64,000 nucleotides of DNA from Candidatus Moraniibacteriota bacterium. Its GTDB lineage: Bacteria; Patescibacteriota; Minisyncoccia; Moranbacterales; UBA1568. The stretch lies in assembly GCA_043743535.1 (NCBI GenBank), contig JAYTWI010000020.1, positions 10,039 to 74,038 on the forward strand. Direction: 5' to 3'. The position numbers were made by a program, and so were the translations under genes. Below the pieces are notes generated by a model. It did no database searches. It saw only the letters and a list, made by a program, of their open reading frames with translations, and was not told the origin of the DNA. Shown here piece by piece: positions 1,865-13,721 of the stretch. Within the stretch, counting starts at the first letter, position 1, and every line of letters starts with the position of its first letter.

Positions 1865-2680
1865 CTACAGTCCGTACGAAACGAAGTAATCAATCTTGGC
1901 TGCTTTCTTCACCCCTTCTACCCAGGCCTTGGCCTCGGTAGAAAATTTCTGACCCTTCAACTGCTCACGCACCTGGCTCCGCAGATCATCAGAACTCATA
2001 CCCTTCTGTGGCAGCGTCTTATTATCCTTGAGATAGGCAGTCACTTCATCTTCGGTGACGGTTGTCTTATCAGCCAAGAGGAGTTCTAATTCCTTCTGGA
2101 TCAATATCTGTTCTCGCAATTCAGATTCTGTCATCCCCTGCTGAGCGAGCGCCTGATCCAAGGTACCACCCTGGCCAGCTACCTGAGTCTCAATTTTTTT
2201 GATTTCAGCATCGATCACGGTATTCTTCACGACAATTTTGTTCTTCTCTATTTCCGTGGCAATCAGTTTTTTGGTAATCATAGTTTCGAGCACCTGCTTG
2301 CCAGACTGTTTCTCCAATTCTTGGATTATACTCAAACGGCCAATCGGACTACCGTTGACCATGGCCACTACCACCAGTCCCTTATTCGAATAGGCTAGCG
2401 CCAAAAGTAAAACCACAATAGCCACTCCCGCCACTTGAAAAAACTTCTTGTTATTCATTTTCTTCAACAATGGCAAAAGACTGGGTTTCATACCAGTACG
2501 CTCTCTTTCTACGATCGGCCGGTCTTTTGCTTCCGTATTCCCCACAAGCACCACTGGCGCTGGTGTTTCAACTGTCTTTTGTACCTGTGGTACTATGATA
2601 GTCTTTTCTGATGCAAGCACCGCGTTCACTTCATCTATCCCTCCTGTAGATTCTTCCTTTTTCGGCAGTTCATTTTCCAT
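1865..2680 (-). CDS. membrane-anchored SurA-N-terminal-domain (PpiD/SurA-like) chaperone-like protein
   Basis: N-terminal TM segment (FFQVAGVAIVVLLLALAY) followed by a SurA_N-like helical region (…QVREQLKGQKFSTEAKAWVEGVKKAAKIDYF). Confidence 0.5.
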   Translation of the reverse strand: MENELPKKEESTGGIDEVNAVLASEKTIIVPQVQKTVETPAPVVLVGNTEAKDRPIVERERTGMKPSLLPLLKKMNNKKFFQVAGVAIVVLLLALAYSNKGLVVVAMVNGSPIGRLSIIQELEKQSGKQVLETMITKKLIATEIEKNKIVVKNTVIDAEIKKIETQVAGQGGTLDQALAQQGMTESELREQILIQKELELLLADKTTVTEDEVTAYLKDNKTLPQKGMSSDDLRSQVREQLKGQKFSTEAKAWVEGVKKAAKIDYFVSYGL

Positions 2681-2807
2681 AATAGGTCCTTCGTTAATTA
2701 CTTACCTTTCCCCTCGTACGATTCGCTTTCCATCCTACACCAAAAAAGCAAAAAAGCCCACCCGAAGCGGATAGGCTCTTCCCCCCTTGTATCTGTTATA
2801 CGTTCAC

Positions 2808-3230
2808 TTATAGAGCATTCTCTTTCTCCACATAGGCCTTGAAACTCTCTAAAATAGCCTGCCAGCCAGAGCGCTGTTGCTCCTCTGAATGAGTATCTTC
2901 CATCTCAAAAGTCTCACTGACCAGTACCCCGACCATCATCGGGACGAAAGTCACCGTCACCAGGCGACCATCTGCCAACGTATAAGCCAAAAGCTCATTT
3001 TCTTTGACTGCTGTATAGGTACCAGGAAGATCAAAGGAAGATGAGCCGTCCTTGGCTGCCATAGTAAAGAGAAATTTTCCACCCACCCGCACATCATTTT
3101 CTGCGTGTGGGCAGTGCCAGTCGGCCGAGGCCTGATTCCATGCCTCGATCACTCGTGGATCAGTCCAGGCGCCCCACACCGTCTGTGGATCACCTTTGAC
3201 CATTACCTCTACCGTTATTGTCTTCTTCAT
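2808..3230 (-). CDS. SRPBCC / AHSA1 (activator-of-Hsp90-ATPase homologue)-like protein
   Basis: MKKTITVEVMVKGDPQTVWGAWTDPRVIEAWN… is a typical AHSA1/SRPBCC N-terminus. Start moved to the internal ATG at 3230. Confidence 0.65.
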   Translation of the reverse strand: MKKTITVEVMVKGDPQTVWGAWTDPRVIEAWNQASADWHCPHAENDVRVGGKFLFTMAAKDGSSSFDLPGTYTAVKENELLAYTLADGRLVTVTFVPMMVGVLVSETFEMEDTHSEEQQRSGWQAILESFKAYVEKENAL

Positions 3231-3234
3231 AGCC

Positions 3235-3672
3235 TTACTCCTTGCTAACACAGTTAAACATCCACTGCACACCATATTTATCAGTACAAGAACCAAAGTA
3301 CGCTCCCCAAAACATATCCGTCAGAGCCATCCCAACCTGGCCACCTTCGCACAAAGCTTCGAAAAGCCGCTTGGTTTCAGTGCGTGTGTCCGGCTCGAGG
3401 TTAATATAGACATTATTGCCCGGCGTCACGGTGAAGCCCATCGATTCCGGTGCATCCGTCCCCAAGAGAGCATGCCCACCTAAAATCGGCAACTCAACAT
3501 GCATCACCAGATTCTTGTCCGCTTCATTGATAGGCGGCTGCCCCTCCATCATGGGCACATCACTCATCCGCTTTATACCATCCACAAATTCCCCACCAAA
3601 CACCGATCGATAGAAATTAAACGCTGCCTCCGTCTCCCGCGGAAAATTGAGATAGGTACTGACTTTCGCCAT
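3235..3672 (-). CDS. VOC-family (glyoxalase/bleomycin-resistance/PhnB-like) protein
   Basis: …NFYRSVFGGEF…MHVELPILGGHALLGTDAP…GVQWMF… matches the PhnB-like VOC fold pattern. Confidence 0.7.
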   Translation of the reverse strand: MAKVSTYLNFPRETEAAFNFYRSVFGGEFVDGIKRMSDVPMMEGQPPINEADKNLVMHVELPILGGHALLGTDAPESMGFTVTPGNNVYINLEPDTRTETKRLFEALCEGGQVGMALTDMFWGAYFGSCTDKYGVQWMFNCVSKE

Positions 3673-3745
3673 ACATTTGTGATAAATAATTATGCTCGAG
3701 GTCTCTATTTTAACACGTGTTGGGTCTGATTCTCGATTTAAGAAT

Positions 3746-6223
3746 CTAGAGAATCTTCAGTCCCAGAGTGCAGGTGCCCACCAGTCCCGTGAGTATTCCT
3801 CCTACCACGGTACTGATGCGGTTACCCGAAGAGATAGTGGTGGGTGAACCAATCAGTGTCCCCGTTTTGGTACTGTTGAGCGATCCAGAAAGATCGATGG
3901 CTGAACTGAGCTGACTAGTACCAGCCCCAGGGGCATCCGAAGCCGTATCCACACTCACCTGGAAGGTACCGAGTAAACCAGCTGCTACAGAATACGAACA
4001 CTTGGCGCTCGTCAACTGATAGCTCCTATCCGCCACAAAGATAGCTTGCGTTAACACCGTAGCCAAAAGTGGCACTTGGATAAAGAGGGTCTGTGGGATC
4101 TTGTTCCCACCGACCGTGAGACTATCAGCCGTTGTAACCGCCAGCGTCTTCCCGGATGCAACCGTTGTTGTCCCATTCAGAGAAACTGCTCCCGTACCAG
4201 TCGCTAGTGTTCCTGAAGAGGCGGACTGATCTATGTTGCCGGAAGTAAGCGTCACACCTGTGACACCAGTGAGTGCTCCAGCAGCCGAGAGATTAAGAGT
4301 GGGAGAGGTCAGAAAATTATTCATCCCAGTCCCAAAGGTCAGGCCATTGAAAGTATTGCCACCAACGGCTGATACCGTTCCGAAAGAAATCCCAGTGAGA
4401 GTGTTCGTCCCACCAGATGTCCCCGTCAAGTCAAGTGTTATGCCTTTGACCGCATTCGTACCACTACTCCCGCTATTAGTGAGAGCGATGGTATGGGCGG
4501 TTCCGGTACTAGCAGAAAATGTCTGACTCAAAACCCCATCGCCACTCGTCAGCAGTACATCTTTGTTCGCTGCAATAGTCGTATCACCGTTGAGTGAGAT
4601 GGCACCAGTCCCCGTAGAGAATGTTCCGCTACCAACAATAGCCACATTGCCCGATCCTTGGGTATAGCCCGTGATGCCGGACAGGGCACCGCTCGTAGAA
4701 ACATCTAGTCCGGTAGAGTCCACTTGGAGGGCGCCTGTACTATTCCCCAATGTGAGCGCATTACCCGCTCCACTAGCTAAAATAGTAGCGCCCGAAGAAG
4801 TAAGTGAAGTAAAGATACTGGCTGCCGGACTGGTCCCGCCAATATTGATACCATTAATGGTGCCTCCATTAGCAGTCAGCGTGCCAGCGGTGATAGCGTT
4901 TGTCACATTCGAGAGTGTGAGAGCGGTCGCCGTGTTTGAACCACGATTGGCAACTGCATTCAGGGTGTCTGCTTCTGTTGCCGTCACTGTCACAACACCA
5001 CCGGATGCACCGATCGCATTGATACCCCCTGCTGCTACCGTCACGCTGCCGGTCTGACCGTTGAGAGCCGTCACGCCAGAATTGGTAATACTGATAGTGC
5101 CCAAACCATTAGAAATGCCAACCCCCGTCCCAGCACTGAGAACAGACAGGGCATAACCCGATCCATTGCCGATAAGCATCTGTCCATTGGTGGGAATAGT
5201 AGTGACACCGGTACCACCACTGCCAACGGGGAGCGCACTAATGCCGCTGATACTGCCACCCGTGATAGTCACACTGCCGGCGTTTTGCACAGCCAAGGTT
5301 CCAAGAGCGAGATTGGTTCGTGCTGTGGCCGCATTGGTCAGATCTGACAGGTTATTGGTTGATACCAAATCCCCTGTCCCGCCCCCACCCAAATAACTGG
5401 TAATATTACTACTAGTCACCAGCGTTCCTGAATTACCGGACAACGTAAAAGTCGCATCAGTAGAGAGCGTCCCGATATCAAGCGTCGCATAATGTGTATC
5501 ACTAGCGTCTTTTATTTTAAGGCTACTCCTCGCATCATCCAAAACGATGTTGTAGCCACCACCCTGCACCCAATCACTCGAAAGGCTTCCCAGACTTACC
5601 TCGGCCGTAGCACCCTCTCCCTGATTACCCGAAATATCAATCCCACTACCACCCACGGTTTTTTTGACATAGGCACCCGTTGTTTGTGATCCGAGTTTCA
5701 CTGCTCCGGTCTCGATCTCGGCATTTGATACCGTTTGTCCAATCAGGGATATCTGATTATTTTGTCGCAGCAGAGTGAGTAGGCGAGTTTGCTCGTCAGC
5801 TGTGAGATTAATTACCGTTCCTGAAACATCTCGAGTCAAAAGATCAGTTGGTGTTGTATAGAAATTCTGAGTGACTTCGGTCGTGTTATTCTCGATGACA
5901 CTTTTTTTGGTGATGATGTTTCCTTTAGCAGCGCCGTTCGTCACTGTCGATAAAGAACCAGGCGCGCCGCTGCCAGTGCTCTTGGTTCCTGAAGAAAAAG
6001 TTCCTTGTACTTGAGAAAAGGGAATGGTCCACTCTGCCACTGGAATCAGCCTGGTTTCATCTTGCAAAGACCGCTCCGTACCGGAAAAGAGCGGGCTCGT
6101 ATCGGTCTGAATAAGTGCACGGTCGAATACTGGCTGAATCGGCGCCGCAAGTGCGGTGCTACTAAAAAACGTAACAGTAAGCACCGCTCCAAGAAAAAGA
6201 AGTCCTCCGTATTTCTTTTTCAT
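3746..6223 (-). CDS. secreted Gly/Thr/Ser-rich repeat protein (beta-helix/adhesin-like surface protein)
   Basis: Sec signal peptide MKKKYGGLLFLGAVLTVTFFSSTALA. About 800 aa of low-complexity G/T/S/N/A repeats (…GTGVT…, …TLTGISFGTV…). Confidence 0.7.
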   Translation of the reverse strand: MKKKYGGLLFLGAVLTVTFFSSTALAAPIQPVFDRALIQTDTSPLFSGTERSLQDETRLIPVAEWTIPFSQVQGTFSSGTKSTGSGAPGSLSTVTNGAAKGNIITKKSVIENNTTEVTQNFYTTPTDLLTRDVSGTVINLTADEQTRLLTLLRQNNQISLIGQTVSNAEIETGAVKLGSQTTGAYVKKTVGGSGIDISGNQGEGATAEVSLGSLSSDWVQGGGYNIVLDDARSSLKIKDASDTHYATLDIGTLSTDATFTLSGNSGTLVTSSNITSYLGGGGTGDLVSTNNLSDLTNAATARTNLALGTLAVQNAGSVTITGGSISGISALPVGSGGTGVTTIPTNGQMLIGNGSGYALSVLSAGTGVGISNGLGTISITNSGVTALNGQTGSVTVAAGGINAIGASGGVVTVTATEADTLNAVANRGSNTATALTLSNVTNAITAGTLTANGGTINGINIGGTSPAASIFTSLTSSGATILASGAGNALTLGNSTGALQVDSTGLDVSTSGALSGITGYTQGSGNVAIVGSGTFSTGTGAISLNGDTTIAANKDVLLTSGDGVLSQTFSASTGTAHTIALTNSGSSGTNAVKGITLDLTGTSGGTNTLTGISFGTVSAVGGNTFNGLTFGTGMNNFLTSPTLNLSAAGALTGVTGVTLTSGNIDQSASSGTLATGTGAVSLNGTTTVASGKTLAVTTADSLTVGGNKIPQTLFIQVPLLATVLTQAIFVADRSYQLTSAKCSYSVAAGLLGTFQVSVDTASDAPGAGTSQLSSAIDLSGSLNSTKTGTLIGSPTTISSGNRISTVVGGILTGLVGTCTLGLKIL

Positions 6224-6224
6224 A

Positions 6225-6635
6225 CTATTTCATTAATTGTGGATTCTTCGCTTCATCGTCAGCGATAGCCTTTCGGATGACGCTATCATCTTTCATTGTT
6301 TCATAGAACAGCACATGCTCTCTATTGATAGTGATTCGGTTCTCTGGCCCATGGAGCTCATCGCCCAGCTTGATGAGAGACAACTTGGCAGTGGCTTCCG
6401 CGTTTGGCGCCTTTGGGTCAATGACATCAGTCTTGGCTTTTAGATAGTAAACATCAGACAAAACTAACATTTTTTCACCAAGAGATTGGATATGCCCAAA
6501 GTACACTTGGTCATTGGTCAAAAACACGGCACTATACCGAGCAGGGTCATACCCTCTATTCATACGGCAATACCCCCACGCCGCCCCTCCCACCACGACT
6601 AAAACCGCTACAATAATACTTATCTTCTTGTACAT
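6225..6635 (-). CDS. hypothetical N-terminally membrane-anchored protein
   Basis: Single N-terminal TM (ISIIVAVLVVVGGAAWGY). No recognisable domain. Confidence 0.45.
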   Translation of the reverse strand: MYKKISIIVAVLVVVGGAAWGYCRMNRGYDPARYSAVFLTNDQVYFGHIQSLGEKMLVLSDVYYLKAKTDVIDPKAPNAEATAKLSLIKLGDELHGPENRITINREHVLFYETMKDDSVIRKAIADDEAKNPQLMK

Positions 6636-6690: not shown

Positions 6691-7110
6691 CTACTGCCCT
6701 GTCGACATTTTTGTTCCTGCACCAGTCGAAGGAGAACGAAGCACTACGCCAAAGTCAATAATTCGATCCTCACTCGGTCGGTAGAGGAGCGCCTTTTCTT
6801 CCCATACAATCAATTTGTCTCCATTTTCTGCATGCTGATAAAAAGTATCAGTCAAACGCAATTGCTCGGCGTCACTCACGGTCGCTACGGCCGGTACGGC
6901 ATCCCCCAGTAAAACATGTTTTGAAATTTTCTCTCGTATGGACCGAGCCTCCCTTTCGCCATCTGGCAATCGGTGACTTTGCCAGTAGTTATAACCTAGA
7001 TACAGTGTGCCAATAATCCAGAAGAAAAAAAGAATCTTTTTCCAAAAATGCTTCCTCGATACTTTCGGTACTGAGACAACATCATCTGTTTGTATTTCGA
7101 CCTCTGACAT
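6691..7110 (-). CDS. hypothetical membrane protein
   Basis: One TM (ILFFFWIIGTLYLGYNYW). No recognisable domain. Confidence 0.45.
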   Translation of the reverse strand: MSEVEIQTDDVVSVPKVSRKHFWKKILFFFWIIGTLYLGYNYWQSHRLPDGEREARSIREKISKHVLLGDAVPAVATVSDAEQLRLTDTFYQHAENGDKLIVWEEKALLYRPSEDRIIDFGVVLRSPSTGAGTKMSTGQ

Positions 7111-7337
7111 ATATGAAAAATGTCTTTGAAAGAATCAAATAATTTTATTCTAAATAAATTATACACTTTTTGAGATACTTATGCCAAGTACCGCTCACAT
7201 CAAACCGCATAGGCCGTTCACATTGGCTCATGATACTTGCTTGGTGCCTACTTCGTGTGCGCCCGGTGACTTCGGTGGTGTTCGTGATAGCTCTTGCTTT
7301 TGCCCCACCCCTCCCAGTGCGCGCACAAGCAGACTCC

Positions 7338-9038
7338 CTATGATTTTTCTTTATCATTTCCACCAACTAACTTTTTGACTGTGGCAATGACATTATCAAA
7401 TACAGAAGTTAGCTTTGTTTTTGCTTCTTCGGTTAACCGAGATGTATGCATTACAGAGTTTCGTAGTGGTTTGTAGGGTTTATCTTCGTCTTCCAAGATA
7501 TCGTCTTTAATTATTTTTGCTAAATCTATGTAATCCAAATACATCAGCAGATTCTCTTCAGCAATTCTGATTTGGATTGAAGTTCCTGCAATTTTCTTAT
7601 CCTCCTGCAAGCCCTTTTTTCTGCTTTCACCTTTACAAAATTGGCACCAGCTTTTTTCTGATTGATTGGGTCTGGTTGTGCAAGTATGTCCGTCACTTTG
7701 CTTTAAACAACTAATTGGAATTTTGCCAGAATTTTCAATATGCCTTCTTAGAAGATTTTCGGAAATGAAGCACTCAATATAACCTGTACTGTTAAAAGCT
7801 GCGTCATCTGTTAGTTCTGTAAGAAAGTCATCACCCCCCTCGCCAGAACCTCCCATGTATTCTTTTTTTACTTCGCGGTATAGAGACTTTGCTTTTTTAA
7901 ATTTTGAAGCTTTTTCAAGATTACCATCTTTACCACGCTCATCACGGAGATCATCCCATTGATCCATTATTGCAAGCACTGTCTTTTTCAACTCACCCAA
8001 AAATTCTTTGTAGAGTGGGTCATCAGCGAGTACACCTTCTCGACTGCTGATGAATCTATCTTTTCCATCCTTATCCAAGGCATCAAAATGAATTTGACCA
8101 TACAAGTAGTTTTCAGGAAGCTGAGCAGATGGAATATGTTTCAAAATATCCGTCTCCCTTACTCGACCATTTACAAATAAATCCACACCCACTTTTTCTC
8201 CCGTAGAGTGTATGTTCCTATCCTTTGGAAATTCAACGGATGCAATAAAACCAGTGATCTTGTCCGCCATTTTTACGGGCATAGTTTTGTATACCTTTTC
8301 GCAATACTTCTCTAGATATTCGTCCCCAGTCCAATTGTTGATATTCCAAACAAACTCTGTCTTTTCCGCAATACTTTTTAGTGATGCAAGCGTTATGAGT
8401 TCTCGGTCAAGATATATATTGAAATTTTTATCTACGAGTGAAAATCTGAAGTGAAGCGCTATAATTTTTTTCAAAAAATCATCCGTATTGTGAATACCGT
8501 CCTTTATGTTTTCAAAACAGATAATAGTTCCATTAGTATGCCCGTCCTTCATCTCTGTAAATAATGAATCATCCACTGACTCAAGAGAATAATCGTGAGA
8601 GGATCTATCATCTTTGATGGCTTCATCTAATCCAGAATTATCTATTGCACCACCAACGTAATCATCTTCTAATGATTTTCTTGAAATGATAGTTATTTTG
8701 TCCGCACAGGACAAAAGAGCCAACTTCCCAATGCCTTTATTTCCTATATAAGGACGGAGGTACGGTTCTGGAGAGCTCATGCCACCCTGTGTTCTCTTTG
8801 AATACCCGACTTTTAAGAATCTTTCTTTAAAATCGGTGGAGTCCATTCCGATACCATCATCTTTAATCCAGAATCTATTATTTTCTTTGTCGATTGAGAT
8901 CCAGACATTTTTGGCATTCGCATCCCATGCATTGGAAATCGCCTCACCAATGACAGTAGGAAAAGTCCTGTATAAATTTCTACCGAGGTGATTTAGTACA
9001 CTCAGAGATATATTAAATGTATATTTTTCACTTTCCAT
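7338..9038 (-). CDS. MORC-like GHKL (Bergerat-fold) ATPase with central zinc ribbon and C-terminal HEPN-like motif
   Basis: GHKL motifs: EAISNAWDA (motif I), DDGIGM (DxGxG), GNKGIGKLA (GxxGxG). Zinc ribbon C…HTC…CQFC. C-terminal LRNSVMH (RNxxxH) at nt 7446-7463. 11-nt overlap with the upstream MTase gene. Confidence 0.7.
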   Translation of the reverse strand: MESEKYTFNISLSVLNHLGRNLYRTFPTVIGEAISNAWDANAKNVWISIDKENNRFWIKDDGIGMDSTDFKERFLKVGYSKRTQGGMSSPEPYLRPYIGNKGIGKLALLSCADKITIISRKSLEDDYVGGAIDNSGLDEAIKDDRSSHDYSLESVDDSLFTEMKDGHTNGTIICFENIKDGIHNTDDFLKKIIALHFRFSLVDKNFNIYLDRELITLASLKSIAEKTEFVWNINNWTGDEYLEKYCEKVYKTMPVKMADKITGFIASVEFPKDRNIHSTGEKVGVDLFVNGRVRETDILKHIPSAQLPENYLYGQIHFDALDKDGKDRFISSREGVLADDPLYKEFLGELKKTVLAIMDQWDDLRDERGKDGNLEKASKFKKAKSLYREVKKEYMGGSGEGGDDFLTELTDDAAFNSTGYIECFISENLLRRHIENSGKIPISCLKQSDGHTCTTRPNQSEKSWCQFCKGESRKKGLQEDKKIAGTSIQIRIAEENLLMYLDYIDLAKIIKDDILEDEDKPYKPLRNSVMHTSRLTEEAKTKLTSVFDNVIATVKKLVGGNDKEKS

Positions 9039-10074
9039 AGATTTCTAAGTGCTTTTTTATCTGTCTGCCAATCACAACCCCCAACTGAGGAGGAACTGCG
9101 TTACCAATATGCCTACTCAGTTTTGCACTAGGAAAATCCCCGAAATCATAATCAATAGGAAATGTCTGTAGTAATGCACCCTCACGTATTGAAAGTGCCC
9201 TGTTTTGTTCTGGATGTCCAAAACGTCCAGACCCATAACTTGTAAATTGCGTTGTGATTGTTGGTGACACGTCACCCCATCTCATTCGTCCATATACTGA
9301 AGTATATGTTTGCCCGCTATCTTTTTTGTAGCAGTCTGGCAATAGATTTTTATCCCAATCACGCCAAGTACCACCGGGTTTTGATTGAAGAATACGTTTC
9401 TTATTTATTGGCTCAAGCTTCTTTGCTTGGTGTAAATAATCCCTCTTTGATATTTCCCCCGCATCAATTCTCGGCAATTCACGAATAACGTCACCCACGG
9501 TAACATAATTATCCTTGGTATGCGTTTCTTTTGGTATTAAAATTTCGCCTAGTCTCGAAGCGAGCAAAATTAGACGGCTACGATTTTGTGGTATGCCGTA
9601 ATTTGGTGCATATACAACTTTCCAATCCACCTTATATCCAAGTTTTTTAAGTTTATTTACGAAGTTCTTAAATACATCTGTTGTCGTAACCCCACGAACG
9701 TTCTCCATTGAAACAATGTCTGGCTTAACAACTTTTATTCCACGGATAAAGTGATCAAGCAAGTTCCAGCGCTCATCCTTTGCATCTTTACGTAATTTAA
9801 AAGCATGAGAAGAAAAAGGTTGGCAGGGAGCACAGCCGACAAGCACCCGCACACTACCTTTTGAGTAAATTTTGTTTAACTCTTTAAAATCAAACTTCGA
9901 AATATCTGCTGATATAAACTTAGCTGCGTTGTTTTTCTCATACGCATAAGCGCACGACTCATCATTATCAAGACCAGCCAAGACTGATAATCCTGATTTT
10001 CTTAATCCGTATGTCAAACCACCTACTCCACTAAACAGATCAATGACTTCAATTTTTTTATCTTTTTTGCTCAT
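9028..10074 (-). CDS. DNA (cytosine-5)-methyltransferase (Dcm-type)
   Basis: Motif I DLFSGVGG, motif IV GCAPCQPFS, motif VI ENV, motif VIII QNRSR. Confidence 0.9.
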   Translation of the reverse strand: MSKKDKKIEVIDLFSGVGGLTYGLRKSGLSVLAGLDNDESCAYAYEKNNAAKFISADISKFDFKELNKIYSKGSVRVLVGCAPCQPFSSHAFKLRKDAKDERWNLLDHFIRGIKVVKPDIVSMENVRGVTTTDVFKNFVNKLKKLGYKVDWKVVYAPNYGIPQNRSRLILLASRLGEILIPKETHTKDNYVTVGDVIRELPRIDAGEISKRDYLHQAKKLEPINKKRILQSKPGGTWRDWDKNLLPDCYKKDSGQTYTSVYGRMRWGDVSPTITTQFTSYGSGRFGHPEQNRALSIREGALLQTFPIDYDFGDFPSAKLSRHIGNAVPPQLGVVIGRQIKKHLEIYGK

Positions 10075-10112
10075 GTGTCTTGTTTTTTAATTATACAACA
10101 TCGCAACATTTT

Positions 10113-11216
10113 TTATTTCCCGGACTTCGTTCGATTATCCTGCTTGCACAACATCTGGCAATTTTCTGCGGTGGTTTTTCCACCTTCGTGCCATGGATTG
10201 ATATGGTCGGCTTCCATTTCACTCAACTCAAAACTTTCCCCGCATTTCGTACAGATTCCTTTTTGTCTTTCGTATGATTCGCGCTTCATTTTGTCGTTGA
10301 AAGCGCGTATTGAGAGATGTCTTTCTTGTTTAGTGAAAAGAAAGGGATAGATACCAGACTTCTTCGTTACGTCATCGTCCTGCATCATTTTTGCGACCTC
10401 AATTTCTAGCTTTTCAGCATTCTGCTTCTTATCTTTAAATTGATTGTACAATTCACCCCAATTCACATTCGCCATTTCTTTGCGATGGTTAGAGAACGCC
10501 TTACGCACCCACGCTACAACATTTTGGAAATACTCCCACAGTTCGTCAGCTTTTTTATCATGCTGATGTTTCGCCATGTAATTAGCTACTTCACCACTAT
10601 TGATCCATGAAAGTGCCGTTTCCAAGTATTCTTGGCGGATTGGTGAACCCGTAAGCAACGCACCGCCGTCATTTGCCAAAAGGTAAGCAGCGCAATTTGA
10701 TTTACTAAATTTGAGTTTTGCGTCAGAGAGCCATGAGCCAGTATAAACAGCGTTGCGAAGTTCTTGATCGGTCAATTTTTCACCAGCGATATTGATAATC
10801 TTAAACCAATCAAGTTTCTCCTTGTCCGTACCTTCGCAGAAGTAGACCATCAATTCATAATCAAGAATCTGCTCCTGTTCCTCTTTGGTGAGATTGTGGA
10901 ACATCGCAAGGCGACCATTAAAATCCACCGAAAAATCACCGTTTGCAAATTGCCCAATACTGATTGTTCTTTGCTGCCCGTCCAGTACCTCGAAGCTATC
11001 TTCAGCAGTTTTTATCCAATACATTACGTTGAGCGGGAATCCTTTCTTGACGGTATCAATAACCGCGTCGCGCTGTTTGTCTTTATAAACAAACTCTCGT
11101 TGATATTTTGGACGGACATTAAGTTTCCCGCCGTAGGCAACAACACCTTCCTCGGCACTGTCTTTATAGCCTTCGACCACCTCACGGATTTTTATTTTAT
11201 GTAGTTCGATTTTCAT
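10113..11216 (-). CDS. DUF262 (ParB/GmrS-like)::HNH nuclease fusion (GmrSD/type-IV-restriction-like)
   Basis: N-terminal KYQREFVY…LDGQQR (DUF262 signature). C-terminal CTKCGES…ADHINPWHEGGKTTAENCQMLCKQDN (HNH with Zn-ligand Cys). Confidence 0.85.
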   Translation of the reverse strand: MKIELHKIKIREVVEGYKDSAEEGVVAYGGKLNVRPKYQREFVYKDKQRDAVIDTVKKGFPLNVMYWIKTAEDSFEVLDGQQRTISIGQFANGDFSVDFNGRLAMFHNLTKEEQEQILDYELMVYFCEGTDKEKLDWFKIINIAGEKLTDQELRNAVYTGSWLSDAKLKFSKSNCAAYLLANDGGALLTGSPIRQEYLETALSWINSGEVANYMAKHQHDKKADELWEYFQNVVAWVRKAFSNHRKEMANVNWGELYNQFKDKKQNAEKLEIEVAKMMQDDDVTKKSGIYPFLFTKQERHLSIRAFNDKMKRESYERQKGICTKCGESFELSEMEADHINPWHEGGKTTAENCQMLCKQDNRTKSGK

Positions 11217-11217
11217 A

Positions 11218-12321
11218 TTATTTTTTAGTTTTGATTAACAAACGAGTATACGTAGATTTAAGTTTTCCATTAACTTTAATCACGGTACCTCTATTCAAAT
11301 CGTTATATTCTGGTGAATCTTTTTGTGTGTACAACTTAGTCCGATACTCATAGTTAGGGTCTCTATTATCTGACATTCCCAAAATTTCAAATTGATTTGG
11401 GTTATATTTATCGAGGAAAGTTATTGGAACGCCCATTACACGCTTATAATCCATTGGAATTTCAGAAACTTTTGAGACTTCTATCGCTCCATAGTTGTCA
11501 TATTGAGGAAATTCTTTAGGTGAGTATTTTTTATAGAGCGTTAATAATTCATGTCGTTTGGCTACATCAAGATTTGTAAACCAACCAATATTACCAAATT
11601 TCCTGATCGTTTTATCCGGCTGCATGAATTCTTTCAATCTGCCATACCCAGGCCATAATTTATTTTCTTGAACTAATTTAAAAATGTCTTGATACTTTCT
11701 TGCATTGTCATTTCCGACAATCAGAAATTTCTTTTTATATTTAACTAACTGAGCAACGTATTCACGAAAGAGCGAGAATGGCGGATTTGTTACCACAATG
11801 TCAGCTTGCCGCAGTAGTTCAATACTTTCTTCGCTTCGAAAGTCTCCCTCGTCTTTGAGCGGAATCCATTCATTGTTTTTATTCGCCTTGAGTTGCTCGG
11901 CAATATCACGTAGATCAAATGCACCATCGCCGTCTATATCCGACACATCATTGATAATAAATTTGTTGGCGGTTACCTTTGGTCTACCCTTTGGTTCCGC
12001 TGGCTTACTCACAACCTTATCTTCGTAGCCAGGAAGAAGTGATGGCTGCAATACAAGCTCTGTATTGGCAATCCGTGAGCGCTTGTAACTCGTAGCGATG
12101 AGCCTTTTTAATCCAAGTTCTTTGAAGTTACTCGCAAAGTATTTGAAGAAATTACTCTCGAATGGGTCATCACAGTTGCAATACACTACTTTTCCACGAA
12201 ACTGCTCTTTGTAGTGCTTTACTTCTTTTTCAATATCAGAAAGCTGAGTATAGAACTCGTCGTTCTTTACCTTGGCTGCTCGGTGTAAGTTTGAATTTGA
12301 AGACTCAGTTTTCATAATCAT
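11218..12321 (-). CDS. N6-adenine DNA methyltransferase, EcoRI-methylase-like family (putative)
   Basis: N-terminal DEFYTQ, VVYCNCDDP…NFFKYF, motif IV DIVVTNPPFSLFREY. From memory it resembles M.EcoRI-family proteins; not verified. 1-nt gap to the downstream gene. Confidence 0.75.
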   Translation of the reverse strand: MIMKTESSNSNLHRAAKVKNDEFYTQLSDIEKEVKHYKEQFRGKVVYCNCDDPFESNFFKYFASNFKELGLKRLIATSYKRSRIANTELVLQPSLLPGYEDKVVSKPAEPKGRPKVTANKFIINDVSDIDGDGAFDLRDIAEQLKANKNNEWIPLKDEGDFRSEESIELLRQADIVVTNPPFSLFREYVAQLVKYKKKFLIVGNDNARKYQDIFKLVQENKLWPGYGRLKEFMQPDKTIRKFGNIGWFTNLDVAKRHELLTLYKKYSPKEFPQYDNYGAIEVSKVSEIPMDYKRVMGVPITFLDKYNPNQFEILGMSDNRDPNYEYRTKLYTQKDSPEYNDLNRGTVIKVNGKLKSTYTRLLIKTKK

Positions 12322-12464
12322 TTCTGTATCAAATCATCAACTTTGACTTTTCAGCTCTGATTTTCTTACCAAACTTGTCTTGCTTTGATTTAAGTTCGAA
12401 ATCTTCAGAACATTTTGAGAAGCACTTGTGTAATTTACCGCAAGCTTTTCATCAAAAGTAAGTC

Positions 12465-13319
12465 TCATGTATTTTTTGACTTTAGCTTTTGTGACTTTCG
12501 CGGTTCTGGTAAATAATTTTCACGAGAAGATATTTTCTTACCGCTCTTGAGCTCAAGTTGCCTCCGAGCATCTCCCGCGATATCGCCACCCGCTTTTGCA
12601 ACAGATTTATTTTCGAGAAAACCTTGTGCGTTTTTGTTGCGAGCGATTTCTGTCGTTGAAGCTTCCCCGAGCATGGTGAAAATGAGCTCGAGATCATTCA
12701 TGTGGTCACGCAAATTTTCCCGTTTCAATCCTTTGAGTTTATGGTATTGACTCGGAGTCATCCCAAATGTTGCCTTTGAAATTTCGGCGGTGAGGATTGC
12801 ATATTCTTGTCCTTCTTTTACTCCACGTTTTTTCCATTCACCTGCAAGTGTCTCGCGTACCTCAATACCACGCATTCGTTTTTCAATCCATGCTTCAGAA
12901 TATCCCTTAGCTTTATATATTGCTCGCGTGCGCTTTGTGGCAAGTTCTGGATTTTCTATCTCTTCAATTCGCTCATAACCAACTCGTGCCAGCCAGCGTT
13001 TGAAAGGTTCGGCTTTAGGAGAAGAAATTGATTGTATTATACGAAAAATTCCTTCTGTATTTGCACAGTTTAGTTTTTGTGGACCTCCTGCCGTATCTAC
13101 GGAAAGGGGGGTGGCAATTTGCCCCCACCCTTCAGAGAGTTCTTTGTCACGCCTACGCATGTCCTTAATGTATCCTTTTGGTTGAACAGAGTCTGTTAAA
13201 ACTGCCACGACATCTTCAATAACAAACCACCATTCGTTTTTATAAAGAGCCTTGCGCACTTCCTTCTTTTGAAAAATTGCGATTTTGGTAATGGTTTGGT
13301 TTTGTGTTGTCATAATCAT
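12465..13319 (-). CDS. Bro-N domain protein (DinD / phage anti-repressor-like)
   Basis: N-terminus …NEWWFVIEDVVAVLTDSVQPKGYIKDMRRRDKEL… fits the Bro-N fold pattern. Charged C-terminal half. Confidence 0.55.
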   Translation of the reverse strand: MIMTTQNQTITKIAIFQKKEVRKALYKNEWWFVIEDVVAVLTDSVQPKGYIKDMRRRDKELSEGWGQIATPLSVDTAGGPQKLNCANTEGIFRIIQSISSPKAEPFKRWLARVGYERIEEIENPELATKRTRAIYKAKGYSEAWIEKRMRGIEVRETLAGEWKKRGVKEGQEYAILTAEISKATFGMTPSQYHKLKGLKRENLRDHMNDLELIFTMLGEASTTEIARNKNAQGFLENKSVAKAGGDIAGDARRQLELKSGKKISSRENYLPEPRKSQKLKSKNT

Positions 13320-13465
13320 TTCAAAAGTTGATCTACGCTCACCCCAAGTACTTTCGAGACCTTTTCCATTGTGCTCAGTGTAAGATTTTGTTTGCCGTTC
13401 TCAACATTACTGATATATGCCCTATCTAAACCTAACGCTCGGGGAAATTTGAATTCCGAATTTTG

Positions 13466-13484
13466 GCGGAAGAGGAGGGATTCG
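13466..13484. repeat. 19-nt direct repeat of the tRNA-Ser 3' end (possible att remnant)
   Basis: gcggaagaggagggattcg is identical to 13634..13652, the T-arm/acceptor 3' half of the tRNA. Confidence 0.6.
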
Positions 13485-13634
13485 GTCACGAATATTTTTT
13501 GTGCCGACGCCCAAAAAATTTCTCGACCTCGCCTCGCGGCCAGACGTGCTCGTCTGGCATCGCTGTGGCCTTCTCATCCCTCTCGAAAGCCAAGCAGTTG
13601 GCTTTCTCTCTTGCCTCGTTCACTACGTTCACTG

Positions 13635-13721
13635 CGGAAGAGGAGGGATTCGAACCCTCGGTACGGTTTCCCGCACGCTTGCTTTCCAAGCAAGTACCTT
13701 AAGCCGCTCGGCCACCCTTCC
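13635..13721 (-). tRNA. tRNA-Ser (anticodon GGA)
   Basis: Hand-folded cloverleaf. Acceptor GGAAGGG/CTCTTCC, anticodon stem CTTGC/GCAAG with loop TTGGAAA, long variable arm, T-arm GAGGG-TTCGAAT-CCCTC, discriminator G. CCA not encoded. Confidence 0.85.

Follow-up and report, generated by a model that had tools for sequence, protein, structure and literature searches.

A GHKL ATPase with a HEPN-like C-terminal domain encoded next to a C5 cytosine DNA methyltransferase in a Candidatus Moraniibacteriota genome

When the gene of a DNA methyltransferase is followed by a gene whose product resembles a restriction enzyme in its ATPase part only, what does the remaining part of that product do? This question is raised by a locus lying in a 64,000-nucleotide (nt) stretch of DNA from a Candidatus Moraniibacteriota bacterium (GenBank assembly GCA_043743535.1, contig JAYTWI010000020.1, positions 10,039 to 74,038), which we refer to, at its full length, as the window. 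On its minus strand, the gene of a C5 cytosine DNA methyltransferase (C5 methylase) is followed by an open reading frame (ORF) encoding a protein of 566 amino acids. A preliminary description, made from the DNA letters alone, had read this protein as a GHKL (Bergerat-fold) ATPase which carries a zinc ribbon and a C-terminal HEPN-like motif, and had proposed that it acts as an ATP-regulated, RNA-targeting effector rather than as a DNA endonuclease. The ORF, its length and all of the quoted motifs are indeed present in the translation, with EAISNAWDA at residues 32-40, DDGIGM at 60-65, GNKGIGKLA at 99-107, and LRNSVMH containing R526 and H531 exactly where they had been placed; the 11-nt overlap between the two genes is also seen upon direct reading of the sequence. 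The methylase ORF is complete, as judged by the Pfam match which covers the full model, and a protein identical to the 566-amino-acid product is encoded on other public contigs as well.

The answer which we find reasonably probable is that the two genes form a methylation-gated, ATP-driven RNase module resembling a restriction-modification (R-M) system, in which an effector of the HEPN superfamily is present instead of a D..ExK nuclease block.

The C-terminal tail is predicted to be all-alpha and carries two invariant HEPN-type motifs

Structures were predicted with AlphaFold2 (AF2) for the full-length protein, on the alignment of its homologues (predicted local distance difference test score, pLDDT, 84.6; predicted template modelling score, pTM, 0.77), and for the tail alone (pLDDT 87.4, pTM 0.80). 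The C-terminal segment is all-alpha in both models, in line with the HEPN-like character ascribed to it. Its predicted helices span residues 379-394, 402-408 and 410-436; a coil containing the cysteines follows (437-465), then a helix at 466-484, two short ones, a helix at 513-530 which ends in R526-N-S-V-M-H531, a loop (531-536) and the last helix (537-559).

HEPN domains are defined by an Rx4-6H motif with a polar residue (N, D or H) after the arginine, the Rx4H lying where helix-3 ends and the loop to helix-4 starts, and many HEPN families carry a second, upstream motif, Ex3[KR] (PMC3710099). The tail possesses the former as R-[ND]-x3-H at the end of its penultimate helix, position 527 being either N or D, and it possesses the latter as E427-N-L-L-R431, which had gone unnoticed in the preliminary description. 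The Ex3R helix and the Rx4H helix are separated by variable material, including the cysteine loop, at the site where HEPN domains have their inserts.

Conservation of these residues is strict, so that neither a lack of alpha-helix in the tail nor a loss of R526/H531 among homologues, each given in the preliminary description as grounds for refuting it, was seen. None of 78 homologues of 50-87% identity (alignment A1) deviates at R526 or H531, and among 32 diverse tails aligned at 24-57% identity to the window protein (alignment A4) the sole invariant positions are E427, N428, R431, R491, R526 and H531. When 1.84 billion cluster representatives were searched exhaustively with HMMER for the tail profile, only 213 clusters were returned; the motif region is covered by 115 representatives, and all but one of them retain R[ND]x3H. 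From its composition, a 566-residue sequence is expected to contain 0.48 Rx4H motifs by chance; thus a single occurrence is not beyond chance, and the motif is meaningful because it is conserved across homologues. When ten long matches from the HMMER search were scanned with Pfam, eight showed a GHKL N-terminus and two had no Pfam match (shorter matches may be fragments), and neither an architecture other than the GHKL N-terminus nor a bridge to other families was found among these ten.

The tail's closest neighbours in structure, none of them at a significant score, are small HEPN proteins (1wwp, 4nqf, 1jog, 8xdj, 7ae2 and 5yep), which superpose with it over ~90-103 residues, corresponding to 70-78% of their length, at 5-11% identity. 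We consider it quite likely that the tail belongs to the HEPN superfamily.

The N-terminal module is that of BbrUII/HgiDII-type restriction enzymes

The ATP-binding site of the protein appears intact, as E32, N36, D39, D60, G62, G64, G99, G102, G104 and K105 are invariant across the 78 homologues, and the GHKL motifs ExxxN, DxGxG and GxxGxG(K), as well as the conserved lid, are all present in this protein, which matches Pfam PF13589 (HATPase_c_3). In the AF2 model, the part up to approximately residue 370 consists of the GHKL domain, an alpha+beta middle domain (201-335) and a long helix. Foldseek aligns residues 1 to ~420, over ~410-440 columns, with the ATPase-plus-middle modules of TRAP1/Hsp90 and of MORC2/3/4 (E~1e-12). 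According to the model, the middle domain is thus a predicted transducer (S5-like) domain which completes the GHKL ATPase module, and the invariant residues R292, R294 and R333 are candidates for its putative catalytic basic residue.

This module also matches NCBIfam NF050001, the BbrUII/HgiDII family restriction enzyme model, at residues 6-378 (E=1.8e-82, 278 bits). However, the match spans only positions 1-374 of the 659 in the model, and 278 bits compares with a curated cutoff of 550. Two PADLOC REase_II models cover the same span (residues 3-378 across the models). All of these matches are limited to the N-terminal module; the ATPase module is therefore a homologue of the one found in real Type II restriction enzymes, and the tail is different. 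It follows that annotation with PADLOC REase_II or NF050001 would call the window protein a restriction enzyme from its ATPase module alone, the tail being without a Pfam model.

Relatives share the ATPase core and the methylase but differ in their tails

Relatives sharing only the first ~375 residues with the window protein were found by tblastn against plasmids. The proteins of Burkholderia glumae and Halobaculum are genuine NF050001 members (651 and 801 bits over model positions 1-659), and the tails at these loci, together with Campylobacter (L009, L010 and L012), carry the motifs HxWLLDPxW ... D ... (E/D)LK; for the Campylobacter coli protein the D..ExK motifs were recognized by eye, without an NF050001 score. 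A weak, sub-threshold similarity to SduA_C / HSDR_N was seen for the Burkholderia tail only, and it agrees with the restriction-endonuclease-fold tail of paraMORC3 described by Iyer et al. (PMC2292703).

Another type of tail is found in a Neisseria gonorrhoeae relative (L011), which has an HATPase_c_3 N-terminus and a Ymh HEPN tail (PF09509, E=2.9e-25) with the motif FRNPVQH. At this locus (1927-4644) the GHKL-Ymh gene is split into at least two ORFs, one of 297 amino acids with HATPase_c_3 and one of 198 amino acids with PF09509, and the upstream C5 methylase is seen as two separate tblastn pieces, so that the cassette appears to be decayed in that strain. A 644-amino-acid relative from Listeria monocytogenes (L013, 2992-4926), located behind a C5 methylase, ends in yet another C-terminal domain (...VLISHTKADKK...). 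This tail has no Pfam match, and it may be a TIR-type extension of the kind described for paraMORC4 by Iyer et al. (PMC2292703), for which we regard it as a candidate only.

In all relatives with other tails, the gene is preceded by that of a homologous C5 methylase (35-52% identity). The N-terminal module and the methylase being shared and the tails being different, we conclude that there is a conserved core with an exchangeable C-terminal effector, and that in the window protein the HEPN-like domain occupies the effector slot. The D ... (E/D)xK nuclease block is absent from this protein, which has the all-alpha tail instead, and no PD-(D/E)XK, HNH, GIY-YIG, phospholipase D (PLD) or half-pipe domain was detected in it beyond the ATPase module with Pfam, NCBIfam and PADLOC. 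Lacking both a full-length match and the nuclease block, the protein would not, on sequence criteria, be counted as a member of the BbrUII/HgiDII family. One ATPase core and methylase combined with swapped effectors (D..ExK, Ymh-HEPN, HEPN-like and at least one more) amounts to a natural experiment on one sensor with different outputs.

The methylase gene is a constant companion of the ATPase gene

When 185,579 species genomes were scanned with a sequence pattern, 44 loci came up. Conservation of H531 among them is partly due to construction, because the scan pattern included residues around H531; the arginine was not a part of the pattern. The loci belong mostly to Patescibacteria, namely Saccharibacteria (including the oral Nanoperiomorbus), Paceibacterota, Moraniibacteriota, Woesebacteria and others, and a few are found in DPANN archaea, Omnitrophota, Acidobacteriota and Gammaproteobacteria. 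The family is thus concentrated in Patescibacteria, human oral Saccharibacteria included, and present in DPANN archaea, all of which have poorly known defence repertoires.

A homologous C5 methylase lies directly upstream, on the same strand, in each of the 43 loci for which upstream DNA is available, and of the 41 intact pairs, 39 have genes that overlap, by 4-47 nt. Both in the window and in the scanned genomes, the arrangement is therefore that of a Type II R-M system with its adjacent cognate methyltransferase. Several loci hold this pair alone among unrelated genes, with no other defence gene, for example L006 and L008. The possibility that the methylase is an RNA methylase was considered and rejected, as it is 45-52% identical to the methylases of the BbrUII/HgiDII-type relatives.

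Some of the individual loci deserve mention. Of the genome copies, 44 in number, three seem to be disrupted, two by frame changes in the ATPase module (L024 and L041) and one (L029) by ending at 496 amino acids, before the RNxxxH. At L048, L050 and L053 the methylases are 87-89% identical to that of the window, and their partner ATPases only 46-51% in the N-terminal module and 31-37% in the tail; the evolution of the two genes is therefore not coupled, and recombination within the cassette is suggested. The same cassette occurs on pBM153, a 20-kb conjugative plasmid of Paracoccus tegillarcae (L008, 3923-6638), where the protein is 44% identical to that of the window, has the motif VRNAVGH and no cysteine loop, and where a second pair, dcm-vsr, adjoins. 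L008, from a cultured alphaproteobacterium, would be a tractable experimental source.

A model of methylation-gated RNA cleavage and its alternatives

How might such a cassette work? The C5 methyltransferase would mark the host DNA, and the 566-amino-acid protein would form a dimer whose subunits are joined by the C-terminal HEPN-like domains. HEPN RNases, whose cleavage of RNA needs no metal and leaves a 2',3'-cyclic phosphate, work as dimers with a composite active site, and GHKL ATPases require a C-terminal dimer contact; for both reasons we infer that it is the tail which dimerizes. Should the protein meet DNA without the partner methylation, ATP binding would close the N-terminal GHKL gates, as it does in MutL, MORC and Hsp90, and this closure would juxtapose two R526-x4-H531 / E427-x3-R431 sites to create an active, metal-independent RNase. 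Cleavage of RNA, either global or restricted to transcripts near the foreign DNA, would then block the invader or the infected cell, and if the methylase were lost, the host itself would become the target of this activity. The RNA substrate, the gating by ATP and by methylation, the dimerization and the abortive infection are thus all put forward here as parts of a model. If it is true, this would be a minimal two-gene system in which DNA methylation is sensed and RNA cleavage is the response, linking the logic of R-M to abortive infection.

We favor this model because the ATPase site is intact, the HEPN motifs are invariant and in their canonical position, the methylase is linked to the ATPase gene and the effector is swapped among relatives; the precedent of paraMORC-Ymh HEPN fusions (PMC3710099) is also counted in its favor. 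A number of results, nevertheless, weigh against it. Foldseek with the tail model found no match below E=0.66 in the Protein Data Bank (PDB), the best template modelling score (TM-score), to Csm6, being 0.35, so that the comparison with HEPN folds which the preliminary description had called for brought up small HEPN proteins as nearest neighbours but nothing significant. The superposition on them is known as lengths and identities only, and not as an overlay of the putative catalytic R526/H531 or E427/R431. Pfam revealed no HEPN family at E<=10 for the isolated tail and 38 members of a second tail alignment (A2), apart from one A2 member matching HEPN_Swt1 at E=0.058, which we judged to be noise. 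Tail profiles (hidden Markov models built from A2 and A4) run against all PDB sequences gave nothing but ferritin, DEPTOR and NF-YC noise. In comparisons with Ymh by hhalign the probabilities were 0.3% for A2 and 0.2% for A4, the Ymh profile being a shallow one of 6 sequences, as it was built from the Neisseria domain with a word-indexed search that found few relatives; the A2 alignment comprised just 15 columns around the RNxxxH, and the best one for A4 was off the motif. Finally, a literature search found no experiments on any GHKL-HEPN protein, and the closest characterized relatives by the N-terminal module are restriction enzymes which cut DNA. As for the proposal from which we started, of a GHKL ATPase which bears a HEPN-like effector and lies beside a C5 methyltransferase, it is upheld by the motif, its position and conservation, the fold neighbours and the context, and is not upheld by any significant family match.

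Could the protein then be a conventional DNA-cutting Type II restriction enzyme after all, with a tail that is a novel DNA nuclease or recognition domain, possibly a re-purposed HEPN fold, and a cysteine loop that aids DNA binding? The matches to NF050001 and PADLOC REase_II over the N-terminal module would fit such an enzyme, and so would the gene order, the overlap and the strict pairing with a C5 methyltransferase, which are typical of Type II R-M; in addition, the methyltransferase is close (45-52% identity, as above) to those of the nuclease-tailed Burkholderia, Halobaculum and Campylobacter relatives. Yet the NF050001 match breaks off far from the end of the model and well below the cutoff, the D..ExK block is missing, the AF2 models have no strand-containing nuclease fold in the tail, and the residues invariant there are those of RNase-type HEPN motifs. 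The cysteine loop is missing in most clades, and no HEPN domain is known to cut DNA. We thus see a conventional DNA-cutting enzyme as unlikely. A narrower variant, in which one lineage of genuine Type II restriction enzymes had its DNase domain replaced by the HEPN-like domain and it is this domain that cuts unmethylated DNA, seems to us quite unlikely; were it true, this would be the first HEPN-fold restriction endonuclease. An R-M system with an RNA-cleavage output triggered by unmethylated DNA is more probable than such a HEPN-fold DNA cutter, and had been put forward before for Ymh fusions.

It is also conceivable that the tail is HEPN-like but non-catalytic, serving as a dimerization or ligand module as proposed for sacsin, and that the protein is an ATP-driven DNA clamp or sensor which recruits a separate nuclease, for example a DUF262-HNH protein. 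GHKL ATPases in general need a C-terminal dimerization element, and a DUF262-HNH gene does adjoin the cassette in the window and at L002/L020, L014 and L016. On the other hand, DUF262-HNH, accompanied by its own EcoRI-like methyltransferase, is present in only ~3 of the 44 genome loci and forms a separate R-M pair, and many loci have no other nuclease nearby. An obligatory partnership with the DUF262-HNH protein was rejected on this count. Moreover, the R, the [ND], the H and the ExxxR are invariant here, whereas non-catalytic HEPN domains typically lose the Rx4H (PMC3710099). A non-catalytic tail is therefore an improbable explanation in our opinion. As to the idea that the tail has no relation to HEPN and is a helical bundle specific to this family, its motif and fold resemblance being convergent or coincidental, it would account for the uniformly negative sequence-based tests and for the lack of a significant Foldseek match, and the chance expectation for a single Rx4H, given above, would also agree with it. 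Against it, two independent HEPN motifs are invariant and lie in the expected helices, and a sister lineage has a bona fide HEPN domain (Ymh) at the same position; this idea is, we believe, very unlikely.

Comparison with known systems

Fusions of paraMORC with Ymh HEPN domains in R-M neighbourhoods were proposed to be functional analogues of PrrC/RloC by Anantharaman et al. 2013 (PMC3710099), and the same architecture was noted for R.NmeAIP by Orlowski & Bujnicki 2008 (PMC2441816). Like the window protein, the paraMORC-Ymh fusions have an N-terminal GHKL and middle module and a C-terminal alpha-helical RNxxxH domain and are located directly downstream of a C5 methyltransferase gene. Unlike them, the window protein has a tail which does not match PF09509 and which, in its subclade, carries a four-cysteine loop; its N-terminal module is also far closer to BbrUII/HgiDII than to the Neisseria protein (27% identity). 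Neither the window tail nor any of the 38 A2 members matches PF09509 (gathering score 25 bits) at E<=10, so that, by sequence, the tail would not be placed in the Ymh family.

The paraMORC3-like combination of a GHKL ATPase with a restriction-endonuclease-fold nuclease was described by Iyer et al. 2008 (PMC2292703). With the BbrUII/HgiDII family (NF050001), the window protein has in common its homologous first ~375 residues, the C5 methyltransferase (at the 45-52% identity already mentioned), the gene order and the tight spacing, but true members are 660-680 amino acids long and end in the HxWLLDPxW ... D ... (E/D)LK motifs, in contrast to the HEPN-like domain found here.

The anticodon nucleases PrrC and RloC resemble the window protein in that an NTPase is fused to a C-terminal HEPN(-like) domain and tied to R-M, and this is a functional analogy only: their NTPase is ABC/Rad50-like, while the N-terminal domain here is a GHKL one with no ABC/Rad50-like character. 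PrrC and RloC accompany complete Type I R-M systems with a separate restriction subunit. The ATPase-HEPN-like protein of the window is, unlike them, the only partner of its methylase. Stand-alone HEPN toxins associated with MNT, of ~120-150 amino acids, are neutralized by a nucleotidyltransferase antitoxin and have no detectable sequence relationship to the window tail. A distant architectural parallel is sacsin, with its repeats of Hsp90-like GHKL and its C-terminal HEPN domain, which is thought to bind nucleotides and not to cut RNA. In contrast to the window protein, sacsin has no methylase context; it is a chaperone-like eukaryotic protein of 4,579 amino acids (PMC3629688).

The GHKL-HEPN kind of R-M component has thus already been described by comparative genomics, and what is new in the window protein is that a BbrUII/HgiDII-like ATPase core is combined with a HEPN-like domain lacking a Pfam model and, in a subclade, with a four-cysteine loop.

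The cysteine feature is a clade-specific loop

The cysteines of the tail were previously taken for a zinc ribbon with a Cx5HxC spacing, which is wrong by one residue, as the pattern actually reads C444-x6-H451-x-C453 ... C465-x2-C468. All four cysteines are kept in each of the 71 homologues that bear the insert (the remaining 7 of the 78 close homologues lack it as a whole), and H451 is variable among homologues (K/N/Q/E). The insert is absent from most distant clades and from the Paracoccus plasmid homologue. A zinc ribbon is expected to have two beta-hairpin knuckles with CxxC-type pairs, whereas a single CxxC pair is present here (C465/C468), the other pair being Cx8C, and DSSP assigns coil to residues 437-465 in both AF2 models (pLDDT ~78-84), with no beta-hairpins; metal is not modelled by AF2. 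What is left of the zinc ribbon, therefore, is the set of four conserved cysteine ligands, without a conserved histidine or, in the models, beta-hairpins and restricted to a subclade. We regard it as a clade-specific loop inserted in the HEPN-like domain, which probably binds metal.

Genomic setting of the cassette

Coordinates of the cassette, of its domains and motifs and of the neighbouring features are collected in Table 1.

Table 1. Position of the cassette, its predicted domains and motifs, and neighbouring features in the window
Feature	Position (nt)	Strand	Basis or remark
GHKL-HEPN-like ORF, 566 amino acids, stop codon included	7338..9038	-	ORF list and direct reading
C5 cytosine DNA methyltransferase, 348 amino acids, partner gene upstream	9028..10074	-	Pfam DNA_methylase E=1.5e-63, full model; TIGR00675 dcm
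11-nt overlap ATGGAAAGTGA, methyltransferase stop codon / ATPase start codon	9028..9038	-	sequence read directly
GHKL (Bergerat-fold) ATPase domain, residues ~1-200	8439..9038	-	Pfam HATPase_c_3 E=1.7e-17
Predicted middle (transducer/S5-like) alpha+beta domain and long connecting helix, residues ~201-375	7914..8438	-	AF2 secondary structure, Foldseek
C-terminal all-alpha (predicted) HEPN-like domain, residues 376-566	7341..7913	-	
E427-N428-L-L-R431, Ex3[KR]-type motif, helix 410-436	7746..7760	-	E427, N428 and R431 invariant in A4
Four-cysteine (C444, C453, C465, C468) putative metal-binding loop, insertion in HEPN-like domain	7635..7709	-	
R491, further invariant arginine (I-x-I-R)	7566..7568	-	invariant in A4; R in 77/78 and K in 1 in A1
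R526-N-S-V-M-H531, R[ND]x3H motif, end of helix 513-530, ahead of last helix 537-559	7446..7463	-	
Second R-M pair	10113-11216 and 11218-12321	-	separate from the C5 methyltransferase cassette
Bro-N domain protein	12465-13319	-	matches PDC-S13, a candidate defence family of PADLOC, over nearly its whole length (E=1.4e-111)
tRNA-Ser	13634-13721	-	low-GC block just downstream of the tRNA gene

The cassette is located inside a 6.3-kb block of low GC content (window positions 7000-13400), with 37-41% GC in comparison to 46-52% in the flanks. An exact 19-nt copy of the 3' end of the tRNA-Ser gene is found 168 nt away from it (13466-13484 = 13634-13652), and this copy was all that a search for attachment (att)-type repeats bounding the whole block revealed. 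The block looks like an acquired, integrated defence island with an att-like remnant. In the flank, the encoded pyruvate kinase is 70-75% identical to those of named Moranbacteria/Moraniibacteriota, which makes a host from this candidate phylum probable.

The second R-M pair of this island consists of an EcoRI-like N6-adenine methylase (Pfam E=3.6e-124) and of a DUF262/GmrSD_N plus HNH protein, which is matched over its full length by the PADLOC REase_II model PDLC03418 (E=3.8e-140). Such a pair adjoins the methyltransferase-GHKL cassette, in a different order, at the loci named above (L002/L020, L014 and L016), and not at most loci. The Bro-N protein, whose gene comes first in the island when counted from the tRNA, has a weak DinD-like match as well.

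Beyond the other end of the cassette, an ORF at 3746-6223 on the minus strand encodes a protein of 825 amino acids with an N-terminal signal-like segment and long repeats rich in Gly, Thr, Ser and Ala; it has no Pfam match, and the host genome presumably encodes it as a surface protein. Next come the genes of two small proteins which are predicted to be membrane-anchored and have no family assignment (6225-6635 and 6691-7110). At the boundary of the island lies a GC-rich stretch of ~170 nt (7170-7340) which starts at the stop codon of the ATPase gene. No intrinsic terminator was found after this gene, the GC-rich 3' stretch folding only marginally better than its shuffled versions (z=-1.85), and a strong promoter-like site (11 of 12 matches) is present at 7187-7158, for the next gene.

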